From positions 32,001 to 96,000 of IMG/VR virus record IMGVR_UViG_3300037400_005963: 64,000 nt of DNA; one strand, written 5' to 3'. The notes under the pieces are model-generated. The model worked only from the letters and a program-made list of their open reading frames with translations, was not told where the DNA came from and searched no databases. Below, piece by piece: positions 956 to 35,893 of this stretch. Origin of the DNA: a virus. Taxonomy: Duplodnaviria; Caudoviricetes. How positions within the stretch are numbered: the stretch's first letter is position 1; each line of letters opens with the position of its first letter. Both the position numbers and the translations under genes were made by a program.

Positions 956-1147
956 TTATAAATTTTTTTTTCCTATAGATCCAAAAGATTTGCAGTATGA
1001 TTTATTATCTTTATTGATAAAAGTCTCCCCAAAGCTTTTTTCATAGGAACTAGAAGATTCATAGGTTTGGATATCTTCTCCATTATCGCCAATGATATGT
1101 TTATATTTTTTATGGGAAGTTATTTTTGGTTTTCTTTTTATTAACAT
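956..1147 (-). CDS. Small hypothetical protein with partial leader
   Basis: Likely start is ATG at 1147 (MLIKRKPK), which avoids overlap with the upstream gene. Confidence 0.5.
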   Translation of the reverse strand: MLIKRKPKITSHKKYKHIIGDNGEDIQTYESSSSYEKSFGETFINKDNKSYCKSFGSIGKKNL

Positions 1148-10500: not shown

Positions 10501-13500
10501 TTCCTTGTAGACTCAAATCCTTTCTTAGTCCACCGTGTTTTTCATCATTAAGAAAATCTTTTTCTTCGGTGAACGGTAATCGATCTTTTCTAATGTAACC
10601 AAGTCGAGTTAATCTCTTCCTAAGTCCTCTATCTCTTCGTAATCTTCCTTCATAGTGAAAGAATAATTTTTCTAGAGTATATGGATCCTGGTCAGATATT
10701 GTTTTCCCATCAGATAGTATAAAATCTCTTAGACCCTCCTCACTGAAATAAATTTTCTCTTCGGTATCAGTTTCTTGATCATAGATTACATAACCATCAT
10801 CTAAGAGTTCATACCTAAGACCTTCTTTGGTATAAAAGAATTTCTCTTCAGTGTTCGAGTCTTGATCTTTTATAGCATGTCCATCTTTTAGGAGAGTATC
10901 ACGTAAACCCTCATCCTTTAGATAGTTTTTTTCCTCAGTATTCGAGTCTTGATCCTTTTTGGGGTATCCATCCTCTGGGAGAGTATCACGTAAACCTTCT
11001 TCCGAGAATAAAACTTTTTCTTCTGTACCTGCGGCTTGATCATAGATAGTATAACCATCTTTTTGAAGTTCATATCTAAGACCTTCCTTGGTATAAAATA
11101 TTTTCTGATCCGCGTTCGGTTCTTGATCGGGAAGAATATATCCATCACGGACTAGTAATTCCTTAAGACCTTTTTCTGCGAATTCATATTTTTCTACAGT
11201 TTCTGAATTTTGATCATAAACAATATACCCATCCTTCTGTATTTCAACAACAAACCCTTCTTTATTAAGATAGATTTTACTGTCACTTTGAGAATATTGA
11301 TCATTTAATACAAAACCACTGTCCTTTAGTGACTGAACTAAACCTTCTTCCGAGAAGAAAATTTTCTCTTCAGTTCCTGCATTTTGATCATAGACAATAT
11401 ATCCATCACTTTGAAGTTCATATAATAATCCTTCTTCGCCAAAATATATTTTTCTAGTGGTATCCGATTTTTGATCATATATTGTATATCCATCTTCCTG
11501 AAGTTCATATTTTAAACCATCCTCATCAAAATATATTTTAGAATCAGTCAATGGATTTTGATCACTGATAAAATGACCGTCCGATTCTAAAGCATTTCTA
11601 AGGTGTTCTGGTTCTTGAACAGAAGATTCTACTGGAGAATCTACGTAACTAGACAAATCTAATGGATTTTCTCCGAGTGATAATTTATCTATCTCATCCG
11701 AGAGTTGATCTTCTCTAGGATTGTTCAGAATTTCATCTTTTGATAAATTAGTTGGTAAGATTGTGGTTTTTTCATCAACATCTATTTTATCTAAAACATT
11801 ATCTAAGTCTAAATCCTCTTCACTATCATCTAATTTATCTAATACGTCGCTTAGACTAACTTCCTCTGAACTTTCTCTCAGCTTATCGAGAGTTAATCCC
11901 AGGGTTAATGAATCATCGTCAACGTTTGTTATTCCATCTAATACAGTCTCTAAACTATTAATACCTGAATCAGGAATATCCAAACTATCAACAGATTTGT
12001 CTAACTTCGACTCAGAATCGTCTATTACATAGCTGATTTTATTTTTGTCTAATTCTATATCAGAATCTACATTATTTAAATCAACCCTCTCGTCTCCAAG
12101 AGATAAATTTAATTTTTTATCTCCTTTTGGGAAATCTGGTGAAGCTGCATCTAATGGTGGATCTATAGTATCCCCAATAGGCTTGTCTACAAAAGAATCT
12201 AAATCTTTAACTCCAGTATCAATTAATTTTCCAGACTTATCTAAAAATTTGTCTAACTCTACCTGTTTACTATTCTCTATAGTTCCTTCTTTAGAAATTT
12301 TATTTTCTAATTCCAGATCTGATTTTTTAGTATTTGGTATTATTTCTTTATTTTCTTCAAGACTAGATCCCTTATCTGCTTTAATTGATTCCCGATATCT
12401 TGAAAGTTCTTCTTCAACTTCGTGTCGAAAGGGGACTTCTTGTCTCTCCTCCCCGAGAGACGCGTCTTTTTTAGGTATATCTATAGTATCGAGGGTATCA
12501 CTAAGATTCACCTCGTCATTTTGTGACATCTCAATTGGACTATCTAAGAACGAATTGAGTTGTGTTTCTTGAATAGTTCCTCGTACTATCTCTTTATCAC
12601 CGTTAAGCTTATCTATTTTTTCAACTCCGCGGATTTTATTAAGAATTCGTTTTCCCAAAGATTGTTCTTTTGGTGGATTTTCAATAAATTCCTTATTTTT
12701 TGGTAACTCATTGAAAGAATTCTCAACATTATCAACTTTTTCTAAATCACTGGATAATTTTTGGGGAGTTTGATCCTCAGACTTAATAATATTATCTAGA
12801 TAAGACGATAAATCTACTTTCCCCGAAGGCTTAAAATCAACTGTTTCTAAAGTTTGACTTAATTTTTCTGGTTTTTTAAAAGGATCGTGGATTCTTTCCA
12901 AACTTTTTCCTAATTCAGTTTCCTTCTCATCCTTCAGAACTTTATCCAATGTATTACTTAACGTGATCTCCTCAAGGGGATTTTTAATTTTATCTACTTC
13001 ACTTGATAAAACTGTTTTTTCTTTTACCCCACCTATTTTATCTAAGTCATTGGTAAGAACGACTTTCTTCTCTTCTCCAGAAAGACGATCCACTTCCTCA
13101 GATAAAACGTTTTCCTCCCCTGATAATTTTAAATTTTCAATCGATTTAGATAAAGAATCACTTTTCTTCTCTCCGCGAATCTTCTCTAAAGAATTAGATA
13201 AGATTTCTGAATCAGTTTTCTTATTTAATTTTTCAACTGAATCGGATAAGGTGGGATTTTTTTCTACGGCGGATATTTTCTCAACCGTACTTGATAACTT
13301 CTGTGATTCTTTAGTATTTCCTCCTATTTTCTCTACGTTGTTGGATAGAGAATTGGATTCCTTATTTCCTCCTATCTTCTCTACGTTGTTGGATAGAGAA
13401 TCGGATTCCTTATTTTCTCCTGAAATCTTAATCAGTTCATTGGTTAAAGATTCTTCTCCACTAAGAAACTGAATCTTATCAATAGAACTACTAAGTGATT

Positions 13501-13816
13501 CCAAGCTATCATTATTTCCTTCGAGCCTTACCCGCATCTGATCCAAGCGACTAAGTTTCTCGACGTCGATGGTTTCTTTCGTACCGGGCAAGTTTAAAAG
13601 GGGATTCTCACCTCCCATAAGTTTTTCCCTACTGGTATCTAGATGAGCTTTTTCTTCCCGATACGAAGGATCCATCATTTGACTCTCAGTTTCAAGCTCA
13701 GTTCTTTCTTCGAGATCTTCTTTTAGTGCACGAAGATATTTCTTTAAAGCACTAATCTCTTCTGGCTTGGTAAACTGATCACAATTCTCAGTATTATTCT
13801 TCTGTTCTTCTGTCAT
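4535..13816 (-). CDS. 3093-aa acidic repeat protein with a C-terminal tube/baseplate-like domain
   Basis: Continuous ORF; several classes of 16-27 aa repeats, then a globular domain and a Lys-rich tail. Confidence 0.6.
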   Translation of the reverse strand: MTEEQKNNTENCDQFTKPEEISALKKYLRALKEDLEERTELETESQMMDPSYREEKAHLDTSREKLMGGENPLLNLPGTKETIDVEKLSRLDQMRVRLEGNNDSLESLSSSIDKIQFLSGEESLTNELIKISGENKESDSLSNNVEKIGGNKESNSLSNNVEKIGGNTKESQKLSSTVEKISAVEKNPTLSDSVEKLNKKTDSEILSNSLEKIRGEKKSDSLSKSIENLKLSGEENVLSEEVDRLSGEEKKVVLTNDLDKIGGVKEKTVLSSEVDKIKNPLEEITLSNTLDKVLKDEKETELGKSLERIHDPFKKPEKLSQTLETVDFKPSGKVDLSSYLDNIIKSEDQTPQKLSSDLEKVDNVENSFNELPKNKEFIENPPKEQSLGKRILNKIRGVEKIDKLNGDKEIVRGTIQETQLNSFLDSPIEMSQNDEVNLSDTLDTIDIPKKDASLGEERQEVPFRHEVEEELSRYRESIKADKGSSLEENKEIIPNTKKSDLELENKISKEGTIENSKQVELDKFLDKSGKLIDTGVKDLDSFVDKPIGDTIDPPLDAASPDFPKGDKKLNLSLGDERVDLNNVDSDIELDKNKISYVIDDSESKLDKSVDSLDIPDSGINSLETVLDGITNVDDDSLTLGLTLDKLRESSEEVSLSDVLDKLDDSEEDLDLDNVLDKIDVDEKTTILPTNLSKDEILNNPREDQLSDEIDKLSLGENPLDLSSYVDSPVESSVQEPEHLRNALESDGHFISDQNPLTDSKIYFDEDGLKYELQEDGYTIYDQKSDTTRKIYFGEEGLLYELQSDGYIVYDQNAGTEEKIFFSEEGLVQSLKDSGFVLNDQYSQSDSKIYLNKEGFVVEIQKDGYIVYDQNSETVEKYEFAEKGLKELLVRDGYILPDQEPNADQKIFYTKEGLRYELQKDGYTIYDQAAGTEEKVLFSEEGLRDTLPEDGYPKKDQDSNTEEKNYLKDEGLRDTLLKDGHAIKDQDSNTEEKFFYTKEGLRYELLDDGYVIYDQETDTEEKIYFSEEGLRDFILSDGKTISDQDPYTLEKLFFHYEGRLRRDRGLRKRLTRLGYIRKDRLPFTEEKDFLNDEKHGGLRKDLSLQGKPGSDKDFNTEEKRYFRREGLIDTLVPDGELEEDRYLTAQKHQVNEKNRLEDSLEKDGLLQSDQDPNTEEKLYLDDNGLNDRGLRKVLPEGGTLLIDLINSVEKSYLEEKGFKTKLNKDGFIEKDSIRTEEKYRLETEKILGDSIPGDGTVISDQRPDTDPKKILNYEISLNDKGLTSSLEKYGKPREDDETTEEKRKYKVNGLSEILPKLGKRSGDRNSTKEKHKLQKGLFRKEFLPEALVLRDQNSHTDLKELLKNSRLPKKLSKDEKVLVDQEPKTREKYILREEGLEKKLRETEKSIKDQNLDTPDKNKLARDELTQEISWDGYIIDQSENSPIKIDLKSGRLRDELDPTGKSISDQNSNTPEKEYFNYEGNGRGLRKELSKEGKIIADQDSNTPEKEFLNYEGRYHDKGLKKKLPEDGYTLKDQEIETQEKRRLKEEGLAKELTSQELSIEDQDSGTEEKKYLRNTGLKTELETDGLITEDQLSDEKQKSQLRHGHLESNLKSDGYILSDQNSNTDQKNFFERDGLRSELELDGHVLEDQNQPSPIKTDLDSGKLRENLETDGLVLEDQSQPSSIKTDLNSGKLRNELELDGLVLEDQSDPSSIKNDLNSGKLRDELESDGIVGEDYTTSPIKDDLNSGKLRDELELDGLIEEDHTTSSIKDDFNSGILRDELASDGLIERDHTSSSIKDDLNSGILRDSLEEDGKTIQTNPEGDAVAIAFDDLARDSESLDEGSSKSLYDELILKRAEEQKQYIRSDQNPDTKIKEDLYERDQLRDYLETGGLIEQDHTTSSIKDDLNSGILRDSLEEDGKTEVDHITSAIKDDLNSGILRDSLEEDGKTVPTAGPEKPQINQLAVILDDLARGAYGELSESQLKSLYDFFLDFRGEAAKERVREDQIRYSVDGTIGKQFDPDHEPLPDAVLGVRRGEVYDKDGNVLDDPDKVESLRHTLEDDGKTVRTVGPEKPGIDQLAVILDDLVRNGDLSVGGLKELFNELLLKRAQQDYQGTISDQNPNTDAKDRLRNEENRDFPLTDLPLEEDGKIRPTIGTDKPQIDPLAVTLDNYARDNGSLTDEQAEQLYNNLLLTRAEQTRDELGRTLGMDKPGVDPLAIILDNFIRDSENFSEEELENLFNYWIQNRANSEISGIPIIDGDADSVAITLDNLRRGKTPLTEEQAKEVFEDLLVKRAEEQIKTGGKLPKSLAPRTEYSVKGPVAGQRSDKTRDYDYYFDPDSEKDLEVLTNAFKARAEHHVQKYSSYLLNYASSKDLGGWGQKLQSLLSKFTSSDLSATQVTRIEEDIKNLAKEYYKGEGKIYTTYSHMPGDLSAMLNANDYLRFIADEVRRGYNALNTKGQFWRTLDNFTGMKEHSVDMILWALIKARDMRDEVLKINRSRLPDSNVTQFSKSAEGDILDNARGLLASTVENATINLNAYFNDGRYVSKPDKSKPFNRPKKRDAEDPWKAQDIYTKTVTDFINERFEKKERPTPPGNDWRNTLGWTDPNMRISKEIDTSNLANKDGTVNLKSILKRSFVEAFNPDVKADLNSEINYFFKDQYMRGTGMWTTLEELTDSGYSEETIMTPSTFNQAIIDSSLMSHPGKYTKFRSLVDDMDDGTVWTLDSNSYWEVTIEPYLGWDNGYCSYLPSVEEMNAKNWIQHNVITSYNRWFPVVDFDLSRAKMNMKSLGIYDGEINFPGGIEFTNELRLTLVDDSYKSFRQFFEKSMYVSVYSSEIHKSQYYGYDNSEKFLGIQETFPDGLFTVENCKIDGKDGSYTIFNARGNKRINDVSYKVSPEIFDRARMIGIPNPNMITAVDKTSPCLALYKNITFRIKIYVFTPQLSTINRYDLLCVLKDMSEERKGSIEGSGDELELSFSIVGENPNPRWDLDRSKFTQEEAAWKNSPPKEEKKPEEKQKKDKKKESQKKDQKKDQKKDQKKPSTKKPSKRDNQTKPKKKETNRYRDSSQKHGGTYRTPPRGKTSKGGLAMD
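4689..4732 (+). repeat. 12-bp tandem repeat (CTTTCTTCTGAT, ~3.5 copies) encoding KKDQ
   Basis: Visible directly in DNA and as QKKDQKKDQKKDQKK. Confidence 0.85.
13319..13415 (+). repeat. 48-bp near-identical tandem duplication within the giant ORF
   Basis: Two copies of ...TCTCTACGTTGTTGGATAGAGAAT.GGATTCCTTATTT, encoding NKES.SLSNNVEKIGG. Confidence 0.8.
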
Positions 13817-14248: not shown

Positions 14249-14611
14249 TTATTGAATATCTACTATTGCACAAAAATCCGCCTCATCAATAATAAAATCA
14301 ACTAATTTAACATATTGTGAAAGCGTAAGGGTCCCCATTATCTCGATAGTTCTTACTTTCTTTTTATCGCTTGAGACACCCAATCTAGTTCGAAGAAACC
14401 TAGCTTCACGTCTTAAGAAATCATCTATCCTATAAAGTTCGTCATCCATTTCTTCTGGGATATAGATAGTTGCGTTTTTAAGATCTCCAGTTATTCCAAT
14501 TACATCACTAGGTATCTTATCATAAACTTCATAGTCATCAATTCTTTCTCGATCTAGTTTATCTGTTATCTTATCTAACATAGAAAAGAATTTATTTCTT
14601 AGGACTATCAT
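14249..14611 (-). CDS. Leader-tagged hypothetical protein
   Basis: Starts MIVLRNKFFS. Confidence 0.65.
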   Translation of the reverse strand: MIVLRNKFFSMLDKITDKLDRERIDDYEVYDKIPSDVIGITGDLKNATIYIPEEMDDELYRIDDFLRREARFLRTRLGVSSDKKKVRTIEIMGTLTLSQYVKLVDFIIDEADFCAIVDIQ

Positions 14612-15825
14612 ACTTTATCTTCGTAAATGTTTGGTTTTCCTAATTTTAAAATTTTTCCGAGAAGTATTCTAAATTCCTGGTCATTTTGAATAGCATAAGT
14701 ATACATTTCAACTTTTCCAAATTCAGACTTATTAAAGTACTTAGAAAGATCTTTCATTTTAATTTTTCCACCCTTTAACACAGTAACAATAAATAAACCT
14801 TGTGAAATGGAAATATTAAAATCAGACTTTTTCTCTCCTCTTGTATAATGGAATCCCTCAATAAATCTAAGCCGTTGTAGTGTATCTAAGAGATATTGAT
14901 TATTTATGTCACCCCTAGCACCAAGAATTCCCAACTTCTGAAGATCATTCTTATGTAATCTATCTAACCCCTGAACTATAACTCCCATTGCAGAATAAGG
15001 GATTATGTTTCTCAATTTGTCAGGAGTGAATCTTCCGACTCCTTTTAATACATTGATCAAATCTTGTTTTTCTATTCCTAGACTGTAAGTTTTTTCAACT
15101 TCACCTTCATTAGTAGTTTCATTAATTGATTCCCTAATTCTAGAATCTACTATTGCATTATTATCCAGGAGATTTACTTTAGTTGATAATGTATTAGCTA
15201 GTTCGATAATAAAATTACTTAAAACATATACATTCGTAAATGCAATATCTGCAGCATACGAATTCACACCAGAGTTAATAGTTCTGGATGAATACTCCAT
15301 TCCAAAATATTTTTTGCAATAGTAATCAAGAATTTCATTAACTTTATCTAGCTCACCGGAAGTAAGTCCTAACGTATACATAGTAACTTGATCTCGATGA
15401 ATGGCAATATTTATTTTATACTTAGATACATCTCGATCATTGAAACTAAACCTATCACTTAATTTAGTTCTTTTATCGAAAGTATCACCTACGGTTACAC
15501 CTGCCATTCTAAAAATACCAAACTGTCTGCGAATATTTCTATCAACGTCCTGATATTTAACCGAAGTCATGGGCTTATGTATATGATTTAAGAACATTTT
15601 GTGAACAATTCCTCCAATACTTCCCCATTTTGCGCCAGACCAAGCGCCTTCCATCATAGAGATATCATCACTTTTGTTCAATTTTCCATAAGCTCCTCCA
15701 ATAACGGTGCCTACTAAAGTATCTTTTCCAATTACTTCAAGAGCTCCTGGAACTTTATCCATATCTTTTGGTCCAGTATAGTGTCCTTCCTGAAGTGTAT
15801 ATTCTTTCTGTCTAAATTTTATCAT
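14608..15825 (-). CDS. Leader-tagged two-module protein
   Basis: Starts MIKFRQKEYT; Gly-rich segment; internal EKTYS between modules. Confidence 0.65.
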   Translation of the reverse strand: MIKFRQKEYTLQEGHYTGPKDMDKVPGALEVIGKDTLVGTVIGGAYGKLNKSDDISMMEGAWSGAKWGSIGGIVHKMFLNHIHKPMTSVKYQDVDRNIRRQFGIFRMAGVTVGDTFDKRTKLSDRFSFNDRDVSKYKINIAIHRDQVTMYTLGLTSGELDKVNEILDYYCKKYFGMEYSSRTINSGVNSYAADIAFTNVYVLSNFIIELANTLSTKVNLLDNNAIVDSRIRESINETTNEGEVEKTYSLGIEKQDLINVLKGVGRFTPDKLRNIIPYSAMGVIVQGLDRLHKNDLQKLGILGARGDINNQYLLDTLQRLRFIEGFHYTRGEKKSDFNISISQGLFIVTVLKGGKIKMKDLSKYFNKSEFGKVEMYTYAIQNDQEFRILLGKILKLGKPNIYEDKV

Positions 15826-20188: not shown

Positions 20189-20932
20189 TTAACCTACTTC
20201 TACAATGTAAACAGGGTATTTATTCTCAACGAAGGATTTTATAATTGAGCTAACTTGTTTAACATTCTTAGAAGCATTCTTCTCCGTTGTTATAGTAATC
20301 TCGTTAAATCGATTATTCTGTGTACTAGTTTGAATTCTTCCACCGCTTTGTTTTACTATTTTATTAACTAAGTTCTTGAGATTTTTATCATCTATAGAAT
20401 TTATAACGGTTTGTAATTCTCCACTAGCTGAGGATAATACTATACATACCTTAGTAGGTAGTTCGTTTGCTTTCTTAGGATCAAAAGTATAATCTTGTCC
20501 TTCTTTATAACCTAGATACTTAAGCTCTCGTTCAAGGGGCTTGGTTAATCTTTGATTAGTATGTTTTTGACTCCACTTTTCATTTAATGTTTTAACCATA
20601 CCAACTACTGAACCTAAAGCAGCACCAAGTAAAGTAGTGCCGGCTATAAATAAAAACTTCTGATCACTAGATGTTTTCCTGCCAGGTACTTCATTATAGG
20701 TCTTTTTAATATTTCCTTGCTTATCTGGATTAGTAGTTCCGGTATATACCCTTTTAGTGCTATGTTCGTAAAGAGAATTATATTTTTTTGATCCAGGTAC
20801 AAATTTAGGAACCCTTGAGGGAATCAATTTAGAGGAAGATCCCACTAAACCAATGCCGGCACCCATAGTAGCACCCTTTCTCATATCCTCCAGAATATAA
20901 TTACTAAAATCCTTCTGTCGGAATATAATCAT
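20189..20932 (-). CDS. Leader-tagged protein with Gly-rich hydrophobic segments
   Basis: Starts MIIFRQKDFS; GATMGAGIGLVG and FLFIAGTTLLGAALGSVVG. Confidence 0.65.
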   Translation of the reverse strand: MIIFRQKDFSNYILEDMRKGATMGAGIGLVGSSSKLIPSRVPKFVPGSKKYNSLYEHSTKRVYTGTTNPDKQGNIKKTYNEVPGRKTSSDQKFLFIAGTTLLGAALGSVVGMVKTLNEKWSQKHTNQRLTKPLERELKYLGYKEGQDYTFDPKKANELPTKVCIVLSSASGELQTVINSIDDKNLKNLVNKIVKQSGGRIQTSTQNNRFNEITITTEKNASKNVKQVSSIIKSFVENKYPVYIVEVG

Positions 20933-21505: not shown

Positions 21506-22204
21506 TTAAATTATTGCGTTTAACTTGAAACCTTCCTCCATTAAGTTTTTGGGAATTTCAAGTTCTGTTCCTATTTTTACTTTTAATTCTACGTGAAATA
21601 TATTGTTCCCCGGTTGAGTAGCAATATATCCAGTTTCATTTTCATACTTATCGCAGTATGAATCAAGTATCTTATCTATTTTTCTAACTTCATTCGATCT
21701 AGGATTAACAAATAATATCTCTAATAATCCTTGATGATAAAGAAGATTTACTACATATTTATGTGGATTCTGACCTCCCGCTATATCTAAATCTTGCAGG
21801 AGATTCGTAGTAGAGTACTCAGAGTCTCCGTGGAAATCGGAGTCTTCTGCTTTTTTAACTAACCACGACTTAACTTCACCTTCATTGCCTAGAATACCTT
21901 CGAGCGAACTTGAAGATTTATTATCTCTTAAAGAAAAAGTTTTCATCTTAGTGAAAATACTCTTAGGTTGAGTTCGTTTAATTGTCTTATTATTTTCCAT
22001 ATTTAAACTACTTAATTCCTCAGTTGCATTTTTTAAACTGCCAGTCAACCTTCTCATCTCTTTAAGTTGCTCTTCTTGATATTTTCTATCACTATTTCGT
22101 CTTTTTGTATTTATAATGAGGTTAGTTCCGGCAATTCCCAAAGAGGCGGCTGGTACTCCATATTTTATCCCCTTATCTATATATCTTTTAGTACGAGTAT
22201 CCAT
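21506..22204 (-). CDS. Hypothetical protein with an internal KTFS site
   Basis: Hydrophobic N-terminal helix, KMKTFS, then a domain resembling part of 14608..15825. Confidence 0.6.
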   Translation of the reverse strand: MDTRTKRYIDKGIKYGVPAASLGIAGTNLIINTKRRNSDRKYQEEQLKEMRRLTGSLKNATEELSSLNMENNKTIKRTQPKSIFTKMKTFSLRDNKSSSSLEGILGNEGEVKSWLVKKAEDSDFHGDSEYSTTNLLQDLDIAGGQNPHKYVVNLLYHQGLLEILFVNPRSNEVRKIDKILDSYCDKYENETGYIATQPGNNIFHVELKVKIGTELEIPKNLMEEGFKLNAII

Positions 22205-22624: not shown

Positions 22625-23971
22625 CTAGTTATTAATTTCATTACCTCCCTGTTTAGGTTGGACTGCCTTTTCTTTAGAGTTCTGATACTTATATGCATCA
22701 GGATCTATTTTTTCCATCCCCTTTCTCATAGTATTCATAGCTTTAGTGTAAAGAACACTTCCTATTCCAATTGCAGGAGCTAATGCAACTATATTTGCCT
22801 TGGTGGGATGATTTTTTATCCAATTTCCAGCCTTGCTCAGAGAACTAATATTAGAATTTCCAAGACTCTTTCCAAAATTTTGTACATTCTTTGTCCCAAA
22901 TGAACCGAAAGAGCCTATTTTCATAGCACCGCCAGAAAGTGTCCTGCCCCTATGAGAGTTGAATGTTTGCCAACCAGATTTAGTTTTCTGTGGAATACTT
23001 TTTATTGTGCTTCCAATACCTGACAAAATACTAAACTGTTTTTGTCCTTGTCCTGGTTTTAAGGGCTTTTTTAATTTAGGACTTGGTTGAGATGTCGCTG
23101 CTATTTGATTCTTCAGCTGCTTTTTCTCGGCTTGATAAGATAAAAGACGTGGTGCTTCGAAACCAAATGTGATCGCAGGACCTAAAGCTTTTCCTAAAAC
23201 ACTATAAGCTCTTTGTTGACTATTCTGTTGAACTAGGTTTCCAGAATTATCTACTCCGAGATTATTCTTTTTCATATCTCGCTGAATAAATTTATTAACT
23301 AAATAACCGGCTGCAGTAATTTTAGCAGCTCCTTTAATAGTTCCTTTTATGGAGGAATTTATACCAGCAGCTTTACATGCTTTTCCCAAATCTCTACCTG
23401 CAACTCTCAGCTTTGCCCAATTCGGATTCAGAGATGCATAATTTCTTTGTGAAAATAGAAATTCGCTTTCTTTTTTCTTCTTCTTTTGTTGCTCTATTGC
23501 TTGTTGATCTGGTGGAAGTAAAACTTCAGCAGCTTTCTGGGCTGTATCAGGACTATTCTTCTCTGCTATTTTATTTAGTAGCTCATTTTGTTTTTGAACC
23601 GCTCTAGTTTGTCGATCCTGTGCAGCAACCTGTTTTCCATTCATTTTCTCCTGTTTCTTCATCTGATTGCTACTTTGTATCATCTGAGCGCCAGTTGTAC
23701 CAACCATAAGAGCTCCACTAGCTAATGCAATAGGAATACCAAAAGACTTTTCATACTGTCTACTTAATTCCCTAGTCTTCGCATTCATGGCCCTGGTTAC
23801 TTTATCCATTTCCTCTATCGTAGCCTTTCCCTGCTTTTCTGCTTCTTTCCCCTCTTTATGAGTTTGAATCATTCCATATGCAGGCAAGCCAACGAGAAGA
23901 CCATTTACGGCTAGATTTCCAGCAGACATTTTAGGGGATGCACTGAATATCTTTTTTCTAAATTTAGTCAT
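22625..23971 (-). CDS. Leader-tagged putative polyprotein (448 aa)
   Basis: Start moved to ATG 23971 (MTKFRKKIFS), removing overlap; internal KSFG, RNYA, RAYS, KQFS sites. Confidence 0.65.
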   Translation of the reverse strand: MTKFRKKIFSASPKMSAGNLAVNGLLVGLPAYGMIQTHKEGKEAEKQGKATIEEMDKVTRAMNAKTRELSRQYEKSFGIPIALASGALMVGTTGAQMIQSSNQMKKQEKMNGKQVAAQDRQTRAVQKQNELLNKIAEKNSPDTAQKAAEVLLPPDQQAIEQQKKKKKESEFLFSQRNYASLNPNWAKLRVAGRDLGKACKAAGINSSIKGTIKGAAKITAAGYLVNKFIQRDMKKNNLGVDNSGNLVQQNSQQRAYSVLGKALGPAITFGFEAPRLLSYQAEKKQLKNQIAATSQPSPKLKKPLKPGQGQKQFSILSGIGSTIKSIPQKTKSGWQTFNSHRGRTLSGGAMKIGSFGSFGTKNVQNFGKSLGNSNISSLSKAGNWIKNHPTKANIVALAPAIGIGSVLYTKAMNTMRKGMEKIDPDAYKYQNSKEKAVQPKQGGNEINN

Positions 23972-26602: not shown

Positions 26603-27157
26603 TTAAGGGGTTGGAGGTGTAGCATTTATCTGCACCATTCGCTGCAACCTATCCTTCATTTTGGTATTTACTGCAGAATTATCTAGCTTAGACACCTTAT
26701 CTCCTACTTCTATGGAAGATTTAGTGAGATCTGCCTTTGCTTTATTAACCTCAGCTGAATTCCTCATGACAGATTGAACATCTTTTCCCCATAAACTTGT
26801 ACCATTTACCTTTTCCAATTGGTTTTTTGCAAAAAGTTGGCCCGATCTTTTCGCTGCCTCGTCTGTTACGGTTTTTCCTGCAGCTGCTGCACTATCTTTT
26901 ATAATGTTTGTTTGAGCATTAGCAAGACCCTTCATTCCGGCATTTTGCATCCCAGCACTATTTAAAGTCTTACCAGCACGCATTAAGAAAGTATTTGAAC
27001 TTTTCTGAAGACCTGAGCCTAACATTCCTTTCTGTGCACCCATAAAACCAAGTGCGGCAGTTCCAGCAAGTGCTCCACCAATGGCAAGTTTTTTACCTAA
27101 TCCCGAATTCTTATCATCACTCGAGAAGGTTCGTCTTTTCAATATATAAATTGCCAT
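26603..27157 (-). CDS. Leader-tagged basic protein with hydrophobic helix
   Basis: Starts MAIYILKRRTFS; GKKLAIGGALAGTAALGFMGAQKG; paralog of the next ORF. Confidence 0.7.
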   Translation of the reverse strand: MAIYILKRRTFSSDDKNSGLGKKLAIGGALAGTAALGFMGAQKGMLGSGLQKSSNTFLMRAGKTLNSAGMQNAGMKGLANAQTNIIKDSAAAAGKTVTDEAAKRSGQLFAKNQLEKVNGTSLWGKDVQSVMRNSAEVNKAKADLTKSSIEVGDKVSKLDNSAVNTKMKDRLQRMVQINATPPTP

Positions 27158-27172
27158 AATTACGTAATATTA

Positions 27173-27598
27173 TTAATTAAGCCACCTATTTAATTGTATA
27201 TCACCGGCTCTTTGTCCTATAGCAGTAGCTTTTTTTGTCAATTCTCCTGTGGTTAACTTTTTTGGATTATTAGTCTGTAATCTTTTTAGTGCAAAACTAG
27301 TATTTCCTTTTCCATAGCCTACAGAAGCAGTAGACATAGCATTATCACCAAATTTCTGAAGAGTTTTGTTATTATACTTTTGGCCAAATTTATTTATTGA
27401 AGATCCAATATTACCTAGGGCTTTATTTGTTCCTATCTGAGCTTTTGCACCAAATACTCCTCTCTGTGCACCGTATGCAGCAAGAGCAGTTCCACCGAGT
27501 ACACCAGCACCAACTGCTAATTTCTTTCCAAAACTAGATTTTTTATTCTCTTGTGCAGGTTCAGTATAGACTTTTCTTTTTAAAATATAAGTTGCCAT
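27173..27598 (-). CDS. Leader-tagged basic protein with hydrophobic helix
   Basis: Starts MATYILKRKVYT; GKKLAVGAGVLGGTALAAYGAQRG. Confidence 0.7.
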   Translation of the reverse strand: MATYILKRKVYTEPAQENKKSSFGKKLAVGAGVLGGTALAAYGAQRGVFGAKAQIGTNKALGNIGSSINKFGQKYNNKTLQKFGDNAMSTASVGYGKGNTSFALKRLQTNNPKKLTTGELTKKATAIGQRAGDIQLNRWLN

Positions 27599-28146: not shown

Positions 28147-29568
28147 TTAAAGACCTAAACCAAAGGTTACTTTCTGAACGAGTTCAGGAGCCATGTAGCG
28201 AACACCTTCCTGATAGTAAATACCACTTGCCATTTGAGTTGGGTTGTTGTAGTTACCAATAGTTGGGGTGTCAGTCAAAGGCATATAGATACCACGAGCC
28301 AGAGGAGCCATTTGGCCGTCCTGAGTCTTGTGAATAGCATAGAATGTACCCTTGCCTTCTTCTTCCTGGATGTCAGTTGAACGAAGTACTGGAATACCAT
28401 TGTACCAGCCAAGGAGGTCATTGATGTAAGTCATCTTAGTGTTCTTCTCCCACTTGCCGATGATACCACCCTTTTGGAACTGATTTGAAGCCTGGTTACC
28501 AGCTACATAAGCAGTAGTGTTAACACCCTTAACGGCCTTAGTTGCCAAAGAAGTTTCAACGTTGATCAGATAAGCATCGAACAAGTCTACTCTTGAACGA
28601 TAATCGTAGAAAGTAGCCTGCATTTCAGCCTTAGTAAGATCAAGGTCAGTCATAACATCGCCACGATAACCATCCTCAAGAGTCTTAACCAACTTGTAGT
28701 TAATAGTCTTGGTGTAGATCTCGCGGAGCTTAGTGAACAAGAAGGTAGCCATGTCAGAACCAGTGGCCTTCTTCATTGCGCCGAGAGCTGCAATGTTATA
28801 CTCAGCAACGAGCATATCAGGAACTGTGTTAAGAGCAATCTGTTGCATCTTAGCAATGAATCTCTTATCGTTTGCATGTGGACTGTCAGCACCCTTAGTG
28901 CAGCTAGGAGTACCAGTTACGTCTTCCTTACCTACGATCTTAATTGAAGTAGGAGCAGCAGCTAAATTGAACTCAACCTTACCGTTGAGGTAATTAACAG
29001 TACCGCTAGTCATAACGCCAGCAACTGCCATGAAAGAACCCTGACCATTATCGATCAATTCAGCCTTGCTACCGTCACCGTTCTCGATCTTAACGCGAAT
29101 AGTACCGGGGATAAGCTTTCTACCAATGATAGAAGTAACCTGCTGAGCAGCATCTACATCGAGTTCAAAGTAACCCATAGTGTTGATGTCCTGATAGTTA
29201 TCTGGACCCAGGTTAGGAATAACCTCACGAAGATCGGTTACACCAAGAACGTCGAACCAGTAGAACAGACCGTTAGGCTGATCAAAGTCGCGCTCAATTG
29301 ACATATAGCCAGCAAAAGAGCTAACATAAGAAGCAACTGAAGCGTTGAAGTACTGAGTGCTCAGAAGTGGAGTCTCTGCATAGCCAGAGAAGGTCTTCTG
29401 GAAAAGGTTACCTTCGCCCATACCGAGCATTTCTCTCATCTCGTCATTACGAGAGAACATCTTTGCGTATTCACGGCCACGAAGATTAGCGTCTTCGTTA
29501 GAAACCGAGCTAGCCCTCAAAGCCGAAGCCATCTGAGGGGTATTCATAAGTTCATTATAGTAATTCAT
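28147..29568 (-). CDS. Major capsid protein (T4 gp23-like, HK97 fold)
   Basis: 473 aa directly after protease and scaffold; DQPNGLFYW and GIYMPL...NPTQMASGIYY resemble gp23 motifs; strongly biased codon use. Confidence 0.8.
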   Translation of the reverse strand: MNYYNELMNTPQMASALRASSVSNEDANLRGREYAKMFSRNDEMREMLGMGEGNLFQKTFSGYAETPLLSTQYFNASVASYVSSFAGYMSIERDFDQPNGLFYWFDVLGVTDLREVIPNLGPDNYQDINTMGYFELDVDAAQQVTSIIGRKLIPGTIRVKIENGDGSKAELIDNGQGSFMAVAGVMTSGTVNYLNGKVEFNLAAAPTSIKIVGKEDVTGTPSCTKGADSPHANDKRFIAKMQQIALNTVPDMLVAEYNIAALGAMKKATGSDMATFLFTKLREIYTKTINYKLVKTLEDGYRGDVMTDLDLTKAEMQATFYDYRSRVDLFDAYLINVETSLATKAVKGVNTTAYVAGNQASNQFQKGGIIGKWEKNTKMTYINDLLGWYNGIPVLRSTDIQEEEGKGTFYAIHKTQDGQMAPLARGIYMPLTDTPTIGNYNNPTQMASGIYYQEGVRYMAPELVQKVTFGLGL

Positions 29569-29648: not shown

Positions 29649-32597
29649 TTATTTCTTGAAATTGAGCCAAGTAGCTAATGTGTCTTCTGAGTCTGAGAAA
29701 GATTTCTCAGTAAACTGAGCTTCCTGAAGGTCTGGCTCTGCATCCTCTGCAGGAGCGGCTTTAGCTTCCATAATAGTAGCGGCAGCTTCCTCTGCAGCAG
29801 CCTTAATACTTTGAACAGCGGCAAGAGCTTTATCCTCTACCTCTTCTACAGTATGAGCAGCTGGAGCAACAGGATTACCGTTCTCGTCTACTTCTGCAGG
29901 TGCCTGAGCAGAAACTTCTTCAGCTGGAGCCTGTGGAGCAACAACGGGTTGAGCTACGGGAACAGCAACTGGTTTAACTGGAGCAGCCTGTGAGGCTTGT
30001 ACATCAGCAAAGAACTTATCTAAGGTAGAATAGTGCTTCTCCTCAGATTCATAATTGTTCCACTCCTCTTTTGAAATGAAACCATCATGGTTCTTGTCGA
30101 TTCTATCAAACTCATCAGTGCTCTTACCAGCTTTTCTCCACTCTTCCTTAGAAATTTGACCGTCCTTGTCCTCATCAACCTTGTCAAACTTATCTTCATC
30201 AACGTCTTCCTTATCCTCTACGGCAAGGTCTTCAGTCAACTTGTCAGCTTCCTCCTCAGAGATCTTAGTGAGTTCCATATCCTCTTCATCCTTAAGAACT
30301 GCCTTGGTGAATTCGCCAGTTTCTTTATCTTCTACTACAGCAGTTTCTGAATCTACTGGAGTAATTACTTCAGTATCATTCTCAATCTGCTCACCTTCCT
30401 CGATAGCCTTTTCAATTTCCTCTTGATCAGCTTCCTCAGAGAAGATTCTTTCCATGTAGGCAGTAAATTCCTCACCTTTAGAGAAGAATCTGGTTTCAGC
30501 TTCGTTACAGAAACTGTATTCCTTTTCCTCTTCCTTCTCGTCTTCATCAACGTCTTCCTTATCCTCTACGGCAAGGTCTTCAGTCAACTTGTCAGCCTCT
30601 TTCTCTGATATCTTAGTGAGTTCCATATCGTCCTCATCTTTAAGGACGGCTTTAGTGAATTCACCAGTCTCTTTATCTTCTACTACGGCAGTCTCAGCAT
30701 CTACTGGAGTAATTACTTCAGTGTCATTCTCGATCTGTTCGCCATCCTCAATAGCTTTTTCGATTTCGTCCTGATCGGCTTCCTCAGAGAAGATTCTTTC
30801 CATGTAGGCAGTAAATTCCTCACCTTTAGAGAAGAATCTGGTTTCAGCTTCGTTACAGAAAATACTGTATTCCTTTTCCTCTTCCTTCTCGTCTTCATCA
30901 ACTGCACTATCCTCATCAACTGCAATATCCTGAGTTAAGTTCTCAGCTTCTTCTTCACTAATTGGATGAACATTGATAGTATCTTCGTCAATGATCTTAA
31001 CCTTAGAGAAATCACCGTTCTCTTTATCTTCTACAACTGCAGTCTTAGAGTCAATTGGGGTAATGATTTCAGTGTCAGTCTCAATTTCATCTCCATTTTC
31101 GATTGCATCCTCGATTGCATTTTGTTCAGATTGCTCATTAAAGAGACGTTCCATGTAAGCATTTATTTCCTTACCTCTAGAGAAGAATTTAGTTTCAGTC
31201 TCATCACAGAAAACACTGTATTCTTTTTCTTCCTCATCATCTTTGGGGCACTCACATTCAGCCTTACCACACTCTGGGCAAGTTTCTTCCTCATCATCAT
31301 CTGCGAGAGGCTTAAACTCGTCTGACTCTACCTCCATTACTTTGAGGTCACTGGTAAGATCATCAAACTCTTCTTCATCAATCTGCTCAAGGCGAACATC
31401 ATCACCTGAAATAGTAGCCTTGGTAAACTCATCATTTACTTTATCCTCTACTACTGCAGTCTGAGCATCGACTGGAGTGATTATTAATTCATCTGTTTCA
31501 ATCTCATCTCCCTCACGAACAGCATCCTCAATTTCATCTTGAAGATCAGAAATTGAATTAACTGCGTCAGAGAATAATTTGCACATAACGGCAGTATTAT
31601 TCGAGAAAATTCTAGTTGCAAATACTGGTGCACCTACAAAATCCGAATATTCCTTCTGAAGCTCTGGTTCCTCTTCAGGATCAACATTGGCACCAAGACC
31701 ATCAATTAAACGCATGGCATAATCACGAGCATCTTCTTGATTATCAAAAATCTCAACTGCATCTACACCATCCTCAGTTAACTGATTTTTAAGTTGCTCT
31801 GCGCTATCTTCGTCGTACTCCTGAGCATCAACAATAATGTGATCGTAAGGTTGAACACCAACTACAAAGAGGGGCATGTAACCTTCTGGAGCATCTTCAT
31901 TGCTAAAATTCTTGCTATCTAATTCAGTTACAGTCATATCATCATCATCTAAAACAACCTTTGCCTGATCACCAGTAGTTTCATTGGTAACCACTACAGC
32001 ATTGTCCTCATCTTCTAGTTTTTCAATCTTAAGATCACCTACTTTTGCAGTTTCCTCTGATTCAATTACCTCAGAGAAAATTCTTTCGCAGAACTCCTGA
32101 TCACTAAAGATCTTGCTAACTACAGCATTGTTTGTTATTACGCTAAACTCTCTCTCCTCATCCTGATGTTCTTCATCAGTTTCAACAATAGACTTCTCAT
32201 GACCTGCTTCAGGATTGAGACCGCCGCATTCTAGATTAGGAGAAATAACGCAACCTTCTTTGAAATGGTCTTCTACATGTTCGTCAGGAGCACCAACCTG
32301 ATTACCCTCATGAACTCCATCCTCTGACGGGTGAAGGAACTTTTCCAGTTGTTCATCCGGAACAGCGATCAAGTCATAGGTATCAGCTTCGTCAGTAGCC
32401 TTCTGAGCAATAGTAACTTCACCATTTTCCTTGTCGGTAATAGCAACATCGCCATTGTCGTTAGCTCTTTCATATCTTACTTCTTCGGTATCAACTACGC
32501 CATTTTTCTGTGCATTCTTGATATCGTTATCTACTTGATTAGCCAGTTCTTCGTCTTTATTCGAGAACATGACTTCCATAAATCTTGTTAAAGCCAT
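29649..32597 (-). CDS. Acidic repeat protein, putative prohead core/scaffold
   Basis: Between protease and capsid genes; very D/E-rich; ~117-aa repeats; ~17 [KR]x[FY]S sites; EF-hand pair. Confidence 0.7.
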   Translation of the reverse strand: MALTRFMEVMFSNKDEELANQVDNDIKNAQKNGVVDTEEVRYERANDNGDVAITDKENGEVTIAQKATDEADTYDLIAVPDEQLEKFLHPSEDGVHEGNQVGAPDEHVEDHFKEGCVISPNLECGGLNPEAGHEKSIVETDEEHQDEEREFSVITNNAVVSKIFSDQEFCERIFSEVIESEETAKVGDLKIEKLEDEDNAVVVTNETTGDQAKVVLDDDDMTVTELDSKNFSNEDAPEGYMPLFVVGVQPYDHIIVDAQEYDEDSAEQLKNQLTEDGVDAVEIFDNQEDARDYAMRLIDGLGANVDPEEEPELQKEYSDFVGAPVFATRIFSNNTAVMCKLFSDAVNSISDLQDEIEDAVREGDEIETDELIITPVDAQTAVVEDKVNDEFTKATISGDDVRLEQIDEEEFDDLTSDLKVMEVESDEFKPLADDDEEETCPECGKAECECPKDDEEEKEYSVFCDETETKFFSRGKEINAYMERLFNEQSEQNAIEDAIENGDEIETDTEIITPIDSKTAVVEDKENGDFSKVKIIDEDTINVHPISEEEAENLTQDIAVDEDSAVDEDEKEEEKEYSIFCNEAETRFFSKGEEFTAYMERIFSEEADQDEIEKAIEDGEQIENDTEVITPVDAETAVVEDKETGEFTKAVLKDEDDMELTKISEKEADKLTEDLAVEDKEDVDEDEKEEEKEYSFCNEAETRFFSKGEEFTAYMERIFSEEADQEEIEKAIEEGEQIENDTEVITPVDSETAVVEDKETGEFTKAVLKDEEDMELTKISEEEADKLTEDLAVEDKEDVDEDKFDKVDEDKDGQISKEEWRKAGKSTDEFDRIDKNHDGFISKEEWNNYESEEKHYSTLDKFFADVQASQAAPVKPVAVPVAQPVVAPQAPAEEVSAQAPAEVDENGNPVAPAAHTVEEVEDKALAAVQSIKAAAEEAAATIMEAKAAPAEDAEPDLQEAQFTEKSFSDSEDTLATWLNFKK
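30200..30902 (-). repeat. ~350-bp near-identical tandem duplication inside the scaffold gene
   Basis: Two copies of DEDEKEEEKEYS..FCNEAETRFFSKGEEFTAYMERIFS...LAVEDKEDV; more diverged copies upstream. Confidence 0.85.
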
Positions 32598-32599
32598 TA

Positions 32600-33400
32600 T
32601 TATTTATTAATTATTATTTGATTACCATTTAAAATAATTACACCATTATCTACCAAGATATCTATAATATTCTCGGGAGCATCTGGGTAACGATTTCTTA
32701 AGATATCCATGAATTGCTTAATTCCCATACTCTTATTTCCATATTCATAATGAAGATCAGAAATAATACTAGAATCTTCAACCCACGAAGTATCACAGAA
32801 CTGACTCTCACGTGGAATAATACCATGAGCTTTCTTAATTAAAATAATGCCCTTTTCTGGTATATTTCCTCCTGCTTCAAGTCGTTCAATTATATCGGGT
32901 TTTGGATAATTTCCTTCAACAATATCTTTGTCTAAGTCCATTATCTTAGTAACCTGAACTATTAATTTAGAAAAAGTTTTTTCCATAGCATATGCAGATC
33001 CAGAAATTTCTACTTTATCTCCCTGCATATTAGCAAAACCCTTTTCTAACATATATTCAGATTTATCACTGAATGTTTTTTCAAATTCAGCTTTTGTCAT
33101 TGATTTGCCTGAAAATTCCTTAAGACTTTTCTCATAAGGGCTAAGGAAAATGCTAAACTCTCTTTCCTCTGTTCTAACTGGTTCTGGTACCTGTGGCTCC
33201 GAGTAAGGAATAAACTTAATCCTCATCCTTGTTCCTCCACAGTTTGGGCAAATCATGTGAGAAGGGTGTTCTGCACTTTCAACCTGTGCGCCGCAGTCTT
33301 GACAAATTAAAGTTCTCAACTGCATTCCCTCTTCCCCATTTCTTTCCTCGGAGAATAATTTCTTTCGAGGAGTTGTACTAAATAATTTCAATCTTTTCAT
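32600..33400 (-). CDS. Zn-ribbon protein with multiple KxFS sites, probable prohead core component
   Basis: CQDC...CPNC; KLFS x2, REFS, KEFS, KTFS x2. Confidence 0.6.
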   Translation of the reverse strand: MKRLKLFSTTPRKKLFSEERNGEEGMQLRTLICQDCGAQVESAEHPSHMICPNCGGTRMRIKFIPYSEPQVPEPVRTEEREFSIFLSPYEKSLKEFSGKSMTKAEFEKTFSDKSEYMLEKGFANMQGDKVEISGSAYAMEKTFSKLIVQVTKIMDLDKDIVEGNYPKPDIIERLEAGGNIPEKGIILIKKAHGIIPRESQFCDTSWVEDSSIISDLHYEYGNKSMGIKQFMDILRNRYPDAPENIIDILVDNGVIILNGNQIIINK

Positions 33401-34656
33401 TCCTTTCCTTCCTCCTCGTTTTCAATGTTTTCTTCTACATCCAAGTTTTCAGGCATGGGTGAAGATCCAAATACTTCATCCACCATTGATTGTGTAAATT
33501 CTGTATATGCCTCTTGAAGTTTCTTCATGCGCATAGGACTGAGATAACCTTTTTTATTTATCTCAATCATTGCCATCTTATAGGGAATCTGCAACTTCTG
33601 GGCTGCTACTCTCACCTGTTTTCCTAAAGAACTGCCACCAATTAAAACATTGATTTGCTTTCCATTAGTTACATCACTAGTAATCTGTTTAAAAATATCC
33701 AAACAGTCAGATGTAAACATGGATTTTAAAATCCTAAGTTCTTCTGGATCCATTCTCTCTTGACCACCTAATTGTTTAACTAATTGTTTGTAGTCTAAGA
33801 AAAGACGACGGAATCTCATTCTTGGTGAGAATTTAGCAAAACGAAGTCTTTCTCTAACTGTTGCAGCAGAGAAGGTCTTTTCTTCCTCCACCTTCTCATC
33901 CGATACTTCCCCAATGAATTCTGCGCTACTATTTGCACTAAATTCCTTTGCTTTAAGGATTGTATATTTTCCTTCTATCTTACTCGACTTAGCAATATCC
34001 TGTACACCGAACTGAGAGAGATCTGAGAAAGTTTTAACCTTCATTCCTTCATATTTAACATCTTCATTTCCCTCAGAAAAAGTCCTAACTCGGTCCTCTA
34101 CATCGGCGATCAAGTTACCTTCATCATCCTCAACAGAAACAACCTGAGCTTTCTTCCAAGAAGGATTAAGAGTTAAATCGAATCCCTTTAGGTTTACCAT
34201 TTTCTTAAGAATATCTCCATTTGTTGTACTATCCCAATATCCTAAGATAACAGCAGAACATCCAATTAAGCAACCACTTGAGAGAAGTCCCTTGAGACGC
34301 TTAATATTCTCTGCTGCTTGAGTATCAAAATTCTTTTCATCTAAAGTTTTAGCATAAGCGTACAACCAACCATCACTACCACATTCAAGACCAGTGACAT
34401 AGTGAGTTGGAGCAGCTTCGCCAACAATTATCATCAAATCATCCTTTCCGACCGTCTTCGATACTGCCGGATTAAGATTTTTCGTACCTGTTCCCACGTT
34501 TCTAGGATAATGACTCATAGTACCAAGCATAGAATGAGAAGCTATGGCATTTTTATAAGTCTCTGTTGCCATAAATTGCTCAACTATCTCTCGGCTTATC
34601 CTACTAGAATCACTTGCGGGTTCATTAAACGAAAGAAGTTTTACTTTAAATTGCAT
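33397..34656 (-). CDS. Prohead maturation protease (T4 gp21-like) with C-terminal extension
   Basis: LGTMSHYP...PTHYV...LKGLLSSGCLIGCSAVILG...FDLTLNPS parallels gp21-family motifs; position between portal and scaffold. Confidence 0.75.
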   Translation of the reverse strand: MQFKVKLLSFNEPASDSSRISREIVEQFMATETYKNAIASHSMLGTMSHYPRNVGTGTKNLNPAVSKTVGKDDLMIIVGEAAPTHYVTGLECGSDGWLYAYAKTLDEKNFDTQAAENIKRLKGLLSSGCLIGCSAVILGYWDSTTNGDILKKMVNLKGFDLTLNPSWKKAQVVSVEDDEGNLIADVEDRVRTFSEGNEDVKYEGMKVKTFSDLSQFGVQDIAKSSKIEGKYTILKAKEFSANSSAEFIGEVSDEKVEEEKTFSAATVRERLRFAKFSPRMRFRRLFLDYKQLVKQLGGQERMDPEELRILKSMFTSDCLDIFKQITSDVTNGKQINVLIGGSSLGKQVRVAAQKLQIPYKMAMIEINKKGYLSPMRMKKLQEAYTEFTQSMVDEVFGSSPMPENLDVEENIENEEEGKE

Positions 34657-35368: not shown

Positions 35369-35893
35369 TTATCTTGCTTGGTTATGTCTGTACCATTTCT
35401 TCTTGAACTCGTCCTTAGACATTTCACCATCAAGCATAGCGAGACGATCAGCCTTTCTTGCATAGTAATCGTCATAAGTACCGCCGCCACCAGACTTGCG
35501 AATCTTATTTCTAAGTGCTCTGGCACCACGATCACCAAAATAGCCAGCAGCTGTACCTGCAGCAGCACCGCCCATAGCACCAAGAGCTGCACCAGACTTG
35601 CCACCAAGCGCGTGACCAATGATACCGCCATGTACTGCACCAACAGCGCCAGTAATACCACCACGAATTTTTGATGATAATTTACCTTTGCCCTTTTCTT
35701 TTGAAAGATGCTCACGACGTGCTTTACGAAGTTTCTTAATAGTGAGTGGGTTCTTATCTTTTACGTTTGCAATAAGATCTGAATAGTTCAATCCCTCGTA
35801 GTTATCTACAGAGTCTTTCTTTGTGGTAGAAAATAATCTCTCCTCACCATTCTCATCAAGAGCAACACTAAAAACTTTTCTTCTAATATACAT
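35369..35893 (-). CDS. Leader-tagged glycine-zipper protein
   Basis: Starts MYIRRKVFSVALDENGEERLFST; GxxxG array. Confidence 0.7.
   Translation of the reverse strand: MYIRRKVFSVALDENGEERLFSTTKKDSVDNYEGLNYSDLIANVKDKNPLTIKKLRKARREHLSKEKGKGKLSSKIRGGITGAVGAVHGGIIGHALGGKSGAALGAMGGAAAGTAAGYFGDRGARALRNKIRKSGGGGTYDDYYARKADRLAMLDGEMSKDEFKKKWYRHNQAR

Follow-up and report, generated by a model that had tools for sequence, protein, structure and literature searches.

A candidate head-loaded polyprotein of five basic modules joined by a putative prohead protease motif in an uncultured tailed phage

A five-module gene between the head and sheath genes

The viral DNA analyzed here (64,000 nucleotides, hereafter the window) corresponds to bases 32001-96000 of the 156.5-kb record IMGVR_UViG_3300037400_005963 (Duplodnaviria; Caudoviricetes), which is about 42% complete. 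Between its head and sheath genes, at 22625-23971, lies a gene whose product is probably a head-loaded precursor, predicted to be cut at most copies of a short repeated motif by the phage's own gp21-like protease. An initial annotation had placed at this position a putative polyprotein of five peptides separated by a cleavage-like motif; a single open reading frame (ORF) of 448 amino acids (aa) plus stop codon was indeed found there, on the minus strand, with the N-terminus MTKFRKKIFS. A longer, GTG-started ORF (to 24070) was rejected, since it overlaps the upstream gene and the homologs begin at the same Met as the 448-aa form. The protein is strongly basic (isoelectric point, pI, 10.2; net charge about +45) and is divided by the motif in the following way.

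22625..23971, minus strand: whole ORF, 448-aa basic precursor (28 homologs; 227 cluster representatives)
23945..23971, minus strand: N-terminal leader, residues 1-9, ending in site 1 (K7-I-F, then S10; KIFS at 7); common to about 25-30 minus-strand ORFs of the window (the tagged proteins)
23741..23944, minus strand: module A, residues 10-77, 7.4 kDa, pI 9.4; weakly hydrophobic Gly-rich segment and polar helix; specific to the clade of the window
23738..23749, minus strand: site 2, KSFG, residues 75-78; F77 conserved in 24/24 aligned sequences
23438..23740, minus strand: module B, residues 78-178, 11.2 kDa, pI 9.7; hydrophobic Gly/Ala-rich N-terminus (76-95), long Q/K/E-rich helix, variable tail
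23435..23446, minus strand: site 3, RNYA, residues 176-179; strict motif in this region in 91/101 family representatives
23204..23437, minus strand: module C, residues 179-256, 8.3 kDa, pI 10.4; location of the highest conservation in the family (Y223, K227, I229, D232-K235, G244)
23201..23212, minus strand: site 4, RAYS, residues 254-257; Y256 conserved in 24/25 aligned sequences; strict motif in 82/129 and [FY][SGAT] in 99/129 representatives
23033..23203, minus strand: module D, residues 257-313, 6.2 kDa, pI 10.4; followed by a Pro/Lys/Gln linker of variable length
23030..23041, minus strand: site 5, KQFS, residues 311-314; strict motif in 119/142 and [FY][SGAT] in 132/142 representatives
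22628..23032, minus strand: module E, residues 314-448, 14.4 kDa, pI 10.3; helical, hydrophobic stretch 389-409, near-invariant C-terminal DP-AYKYQ box

Module E was the largest of the five and carried no internal motif sites in the window protein. The modules were similarly conserved overall, with module C the highest. A second site about 8 residues upstream of site 3 was often present in the relatives and was degenerate in the window protein (FLFS).

A Gly/Ala-rich hydrophobic helix had initially been described after each site, and this description held only in part. Uncharged, moderately hydrophobic stretches were observed at residues 15-35 (past the leader), 76-95 (past site 2) and 389-409 (within module E), whereas the segments after sites 4 and 5 were short and weakly hydrophobic and the one after site 3 was not hydrophobic. 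The 19-residue Kyte-Doolittle maximum of the precursor was 1.55, a borderline value for a membrane helix and under the usual transmembrane threshold. In an AlphaFold2 (AF2) model of the precursor, residues 1-39, 77-105, 171-182, 252-269 and 299-334 were low-confidence segments, and all five sites were located inside or at the edge of these, between helical modules.

The protein had few recognizable relatives outside its own family. No Pfam match was obtained even at E values up to 10, the cut-offs of the glycine-zipper families PF05433, PF13488 and PF13441 not being reached. Among PHROGs, phrog_2612, whose function is unknown, gave the sole match, a weak one (E 0.002); 50,697 phage records searched by tblastn contained no match, and the ESM Atlas search yielded unnamed viral clusters only. 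Nor was any sequence or profile similarity to the inner-body (ejection) protein families of phiKZ and SPN3US detected with Pfam, PHROG or tblastn.

The junction motif is conserved in register across the family

The motif [KR]-x-[FY]-[SGAT] occurred exactly five times in the 448-aa protein, as KIFS at residue 7, KSFG at 75, RNYA at 176, RAYS at 254 and KQFS at 311, the copies being preceded by Q/K-rich polar stretches as first described. Shuffles that preserved the composition gave a mean of 1.16 copies (P = 0.005).

The first homolog search yielded 28 homologs, mostly full length, with identities down to 33%, and nine related loci were obtained from viral contigs, in which the gene order was the same from the capsid gene to the sheath gene. 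In alignments of 19 and 25 sequences (the latter of 26-68% identity) all five sites were in register, while the linkers preceding them varied in length and sequence. A profile search of 1.8 billion representatives extended the family to at least 227 clusters. Among 150 family representatives, 485 copies of the motif were counted against 167 expected, concentrated on profile positions 67, 147, 157, 229 and 299, that is, on the same four or five junctions; within the modules the motif was not enriched (77 observed against 110 expected). Conservation of the sites in homologs, on which the first proposal had been made to depend, was in this way borne out.

Numbered with the aromatic residue as 0, the family consensus at the junctions ran from -3 to +1 as Q-[KR]-x-[YF]-[SAG], which corresponds to the final five residues of the N-terminal leader. 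In the majority of the family, which is without module A, the aromatic residue of the leader was often followed by F, V, W or I, which fits P3 and P1 as the core determinants of recognition. No Glu was conserved at the junctions, and cleavage after Glu in an (L/I/A/S)-x-E motif, by which the T4 class is defined, had no counterpart in the family.

The pattern is degenerate, spans just four residues and was sought in a protein rich in K and Q, where about 1.2 matches are expected; the copies could therefore have been chance matches. The excess over shuffles in the single sequence and the retention of the site positions across the 150 representatives effectively refute this explanation. The control points the same way: the reversed motif was absent from the 448-aa protein and was present in 6/18 homologs, at most once in each and at scattered positions.

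The modules behave as cassettes in related phages

Module A was found to be a duplicate of about the first 58 residues of module B (hhalign 97.9%, E 3.8e-13; BLASTP E 4e-6). Most family members are 320-400 residues long and have no module A, and in distant relatives of this kind the end of the N-terminal leader aligned onto site 2 of the window protein. Because module A duplicates module B, internal site 2 descends from a leader. Only these two modules are duplicates, sites 3 to 5 dividing unrelated modules.

Inserts were found after site 5 in six homologs. The insert of P0013 corresponded to the first 61 residues, leader included, of a stand-alone tagged protein of the window, 27173-27598 (50% identity, E 7e-14), and 26603-27157 also matched it (E 9e-11). 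Residues 77-195 of P0024-P0028 formed a GNAT acetyltransferase domain (PF13508, E 6.7e-9), placed exactly between two Q-[KR]-Q-Y-S copies, the second of which lay within a complete internal Met-leader (P0027). This domain is a candidate virion-packaged enzyme, similar in concept to T4 Alt. The gene calls of P0024-P0028 and of P0022 were without an N-terminal leader, and their true starts may lie upstream. No GNAT domain was found in the 42% of the genome represented by the 156.5-kb record of the window, and in a scan of viral contigs with P0027 the sole match was the GNAT-less relative L009.

Nine complete internal leaders were counted in longer relatives, where 0.5 would be expected, and they usually lay directly past a core site. 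The proposal that one packaging tag delivers all of the peptides did not survive this observation at the level of the family. Additionally, genes consisting of the leader and modules C-D-E were found (P0256 and P0268), and at locus L005:9447-10457 (plus strand) the orthologs of two neighbouring tagged genes of the window, 21506-22204 and 20189-20932, were fused into one 336-aa ORF with an internal Met-leader at residue 115. In P0260, P0265, P0282 and P0255 (486-630 aa), there were one or two additional hydrophobic helices of the Gly/Ala-zipper type with Lys/Arg runs on either side; they were placed between modules C and D and past site 5, and they resembled the 27173-27598 family.

Each module had also been said to resemble the stand-alone tagged proteins. 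For the A/B-type module this was correct, stand-alone tagged homologs being encoded two genes downstream in relatives (profile search, E about 3e-6); for modules C, D and E no short stand-alone homolog was found in the window or in the nine related loci. When the five modules were compared by BLASTP with all other window proteins, the best E value was 0.014 in a tiny database and nothing was significant, and on this basis an origin of every module as a copy of some stand-alone gene of the window was rejected. Shorter homologs (30-245 aa) of the 448-aa protein were likewise not found at E 1e-3; hence, no simple split genes corresponding to the modules of the window were found. In relatives the modules were nevertheless separable as genes, as had been suggested for checking, in the form of the leader plus C-D-E genes, the P0013 insert, the GNAT domain of P0027 and the A/B duplication.

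That genes fuse, split and take up inserts at a single short motif is to be expected of a motif that is excised or cleaved post-translationally. Two properties of a polyprotein were found in the family: independently conserved modules are separated by conserved protease-type sites in variable linkers, and relatives encode modules separately or combined in different ways. The comparison of sequences suggests that the junction motif makes the modules exchangeable; it is exactly at the junctions that relatives show duplication, fusion and splitting of modules and their insertion along with a leader of their own.

These data also bear on an alternative in which the N-terminal part is a long propeptide with several cuts, only module E (perhaps D and E) being the mature protein and modules A to D an assembly or targeting region that is chopped and leaves the head. 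Such propeptides are known from SPN3US, where they measure 111-254 residues, contain several motifs and are mostly undetectable in mature heads (PMC10052503, PMC5694885); SPN3US gp53 and gp54 and the T4 core proteins are parallels. Also in favour of this reading, module E is the largest module, is free of internal sites in the window protein and is provided with a near-invariant C-terminal box. However, modules B, C and D are conserved as well as E, with C conserved most, and every module is basic (pI 9.4-10.4), whereas the scaffold, which should leave the head, is acidic. Moreover, relatives insert GNAT and Gly-zipper modules into the supposed propeptide, which would make little sense for discarded material. 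The explanation was considered unlikely on this balance.

The leader is shared by a set of basic proteins

About 25 minus-strand ORFs of the window carried the motif in their first 12 residues, or the shared leader, and the tagged proteins (about 25-30) were encoded within one 46-kb stretch. They were distinctly basic, with a median pI of 10.2 against 6.0 for the untagged proteins. The leader was conserved at the protein level while synonymous codons varied freely, and a DNA- or RNA-level signal was rejected on this ground. One tagged protein recurs in the account of the modules.

27173..27598, minus strand: stand-alone tagged Gly-zipper-like protein; its N-terminal 61 residues including the leader form an internal insert in polyprotein homologs of relatives; paralog at 26603-27157

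Several further tagged proteins were inspected. Two that stand alone, 35369-35893 (minus strand) and 255-680 (minus strand), passed the Pfam glycine-zipper cut-offs (PF05433, 26.3 bits, and PF13488, 27.1 bits, respectively), and Gly-rich hydrophobic stretches similar to those of glycine-zipper proteins were present in many others. The paralogs 35369-35893 and 35918-36352 (both minus strand) carried two close motif copies at the N-terminus, at residues 6 and 19. A basic tagged protein of 405 aa (14608-15825, minus strand; pI 9.2) showed internal sites at 100, 172 and 245, for a total of 4 against 1.4 expected (p about 0.06), and its sequence makes it a possible further polyprotein. Finally, the small 63-aa ORF at 956-1147 (minus strand) contained KSFG twice (37 and 53), with a 13-residue stretch 61% identical to the site 2 region of the polyprotein.

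The leader could also be a signal of another kind, such as membrane targeting or a translation-start preference, the 448-aa protein then being a membrane- or tail-associated factor and its internal motifs remnants of duplication. The weakly hydrophobic Gly/Ala segments of the protein, the matches of neighbouring tagged proteins to glycine-zipper membrane domains and the position of the gene between head and sheath genes would agree with such a role. It was nonetheless judged very improbable: the leader is constrained as protein and free at synonymous positions, the hydrophobicity stays under the usual transmembrane threshold, duplication accounts for modules A and B only, and the same motif recurs in the scaffold, the capsid protein and the protease.

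A gp21-fold protease candidate, a scaffold-like protein and a probable capsid protein carry the same motif

The head module of the window contains the following genes.

33397..34656, minus strand: prohead protease candidate, 419 aa; gp21/assemblin-fold domain from residue 1 to about 190, low-confidence linker, helical C-terminal domain (AF2 model)
29649..32597, minus strand: acidic scaffold-like protein, 982 aa, pI 4.1; 19 motif copies against 1.1 expected
28147..29568, minus strand: probable major capsid protein, motif sites at residues 36 and 58; sites conserved in the orthologs of relatives; a phage 'putative major capsid protein' matched weakly by tblastn

The identification of 33397-34656 as a prohead protease, proposed at the outset, was supported by structure. 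By sequence no match was obtained against the PDB (with a single sequence or a 32-member profile) or Pfam, and fold comparison alone was successful. An alignment-based AF2 model (predicted local distance difference test score, pLDDT, 78) had T4 gp21 as its best Foldseek match (5jbl, E 1.2e-3), and VIA-align placed it on T4 gp21 (5jbl_A) with Z 12.5 and a root-mean-square deviation of 2.6 over 133 residues, and on herpesvirus assemblins with Z 8-10. Residues H49, S134 and D160 were invariant in 32 protease homologs, and their spacing resembles that of the His/Ser/Asp triad of SPN3US gp245 (PMC5694885); they may be the catalytic triad. Four motif sites were found in the protease, all of them in its own linker at 191-260, between the catalytic and C-terminal domains. 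The protein is most likely a T4-like head protease, with the motif as its most likely cut site.

In the scaffold-like protein the motif sites lay mostly within repeated units, and EF-hand calcium-binding motifs (PF13202, E 1.4e-10) were detected around residues 800-850; binding of calcium would be unusual for a scaffold. Beside this gene, a core protein of 266 aa (32600-33400, minus strand) contained 7 motif sites against 0.7 expected, two of them at residues 5 and 14, then a zinc-ribbon-like CxxC pair and five more sites. By contrast, the 3093-aa protein encoded at 4535-13816 (minus strand) had 1 match against 6.3 expected, which looks like avoidance of cut sites in a very large virion protein.

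The distribution of the motif is relevant to the possibility that it is not cut at all and serves for docking, the repeated Q-K-x-Y-S binding the scaffold, the portal or the capsid interior multivalently and the protein remaining full-length. The T4 capsid-targeting sequence is primarily a binding signal (PMC3012670), the scaffold contains 19 copies of the motif, and the conservation of full internal leaders in relatives could reflect repeated docking. Against this, the sites occur where T4-like maturation cuts are expected (near the N-terminus of the capsid protein and in the linker of the protease), and in the 448-aa family they lie in variable linkers and not within the modules. The depletion of the motif in the 3093-aa protein is as expected if stray sites are harmful, and gene fusions and fissions fall exactly at the motif. 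Docking of an uncut protein was accordingly rated as improbable.

Proposed processing of the precursor

Cleavage in the head remains the preferred reading. Since five conserved pieces are joined by a probable head-protease motif, the 448-aa protein would probably act as a small polyprotein, taken into the head and cut into pieces there. By analogy with the capsid-targeting sequence of T4, the basic 9-residue leader would direct the precursor, along with the acidic scaffold, to the core as it assembles. The protease would then cut at the end of the leader and at the four internal copies of the last residues of the leader (consensus Q/E-[KR]-x-[FY], then S/G/A), the scissile bond most likely being the one that joins the aromatic P1 to the small P1' residue. 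Such a cut would retain the P3-x-P1 geometry seen in T4 (L/I-x-E) and in phiKZ and SPN3US (A/S-x-E), with new residues. Five basic pieces of about 7, 11, 8, 6 and 14 kDa would be released, two of which would begin with a newly exposed Gly/Ala-rich hydrophobic segment. In the weakest step of the scheme, the pieces, given their basic character and roughly equal conservation, probably remain with the DNA and exit the head with it, unlike the expelled acidic scaffold fragments. Given a head-loaded and cut precursor, the chances that all fragments stay in the head and that they do not were considered roughly equal.

Several points weigh against this scheme. Cleavage, packaging and location in the virion are predictions for an uncultured phage known here from its sequence alone. 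The gp21-family proteases studied all cut after Glu (PMC10052503, PMC5694885), and an aromatic P1 appears to be unprecedented for the gp21 family. The multi-cut N-terminal regions of SPN3US and T4 are usually discarded propeptides and not cargo. The AF2 model of the precursor was poor (pLDDT 60), and the location of the sites in flexible linkers is for that reason weakly based. The motif was defined only once the data had been seen, its strict form occupied site 4 in just 82/129 representatives, and modules C, D and E had no short stand-alone counterparts in the loci compared.

A bolder version was regarded as possible and rather doubtful. It envisages, for the jumbo gut phages of this clade, a plug-in cargo system in which modules, including enzymes such as GNAT, are added to the virion between Q-[KR]-x-[FY]/S junctions and are free to fuse, split and shuffle, the P1 residue having changed from Glu to an aromatic. 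The unmasked, fusion-peptide-like Gly/Ala-rich N-termini might then act on the host envelope during injection.

Comparison with known head-processing systems

As in T4, a gp21-fold protease (Z 12.5) is encoded in the head module, and unrelated basic internal proteins begin with a common leader, some 10 residues long, whose end is the protease motif, as in IPI, IPII, IPIII and Alt. The T4 internal proteins, otherwise unrelated, share only the capsid-targeting sequence (PMC3012670). Also as in T4, where gp22, gp67 and gp68 have multiple sites, the motif occurs many times in the scaffold and is present at the N-terminus of the capsid protein and in the protease, with the same P3-x-P1 logic. The differences lie in the motif, which is Q-[KR]-x-[FY] before S/G/A here and L/I-x-E in T4, in the set of about 25-30 tagged proteins within 46 kb, and in the cargo. 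T4 cargo proteins undergo one N-terminal cut (Alt also a C-terminal one), whereas the cargo gene described here encodes four or five conserved basic modules in series, with sites between them, and modules, one of them an enzyme, move in and out at these sites. The system would be T4-like in its working and, because no Glu is conserved at the junctions, outside the T4 specificity class.

The phiKZ gp175 and SPN3US gp245 systems are similar in having a jumbo-phage head, many internal proteins and multi-motif substrates, and in these systems the protease removes its own C-terminal part (PMC10052503, PMC5694885). The SPN3US enzyme prefers Ser at P1' (PMC10052503). Unlike the case proposed here, the phiKZ and SPN3US enzymes cut after Glu (A/S-x-E), and the N-terminal propeptides that form the multi-cut regions are for the most part lost. 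Neither by sequence nor by Pfam was a relationship to these systems detected (no pfam12699-type match), and there is no evidence in them of modules with retained internal leaders. Head processing in the phage of the window may be described, from its sequence, as of the T4/phiKZ type with a different cut-site code.

Herpesvirus assemblin shares the protease fold (Z 8-10) and recognizes P3-x-P1 as (V/L/I)-x-A followed by Ser at P1', to be compared with S/A/G here. Its P1 residue is Ala and not an aromatic, and its substrates are the scaffold and itself instead of a multi-module cargo.

In adenovirus, the basic, DNA-associated core and entry precursors pVII, pre-Mu/pX, pVI and pVIII are cut inside the capsid by adenain at short consensus sites, and the membrane-active N-terminal helix of protein VI is exposed only upon cleavage. 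The protease fold and the virus lineage are unrelated to those considered here, and the analogy is one of logic only.

Significance

No description of an exchangeable, polyprotein-like cargo architecture was found for tailed double-stranded DNA phages in the literature searched. What the present analysis adds is the family-wide logo of the junction, the descent of an internal site from the leader, the cassette evidence including the GNAT insertion, and an independent confirmation of the protease fold. If the proposed cleavage is true, the enzyme would be the first protease of the gp21/assemblin family with aromatic P1 specificity. The related Jug phages account for about 1% of human gut metagenome reads (PMC12880540), and nearly all of their virion proteins are unannotated. 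A readable leader and cut-site code would allow head-loaded proteins and their mature products to be predicted from sequence, and the exchange of modules at cut sites suggests a natural scheme for packaging foreign proteins.

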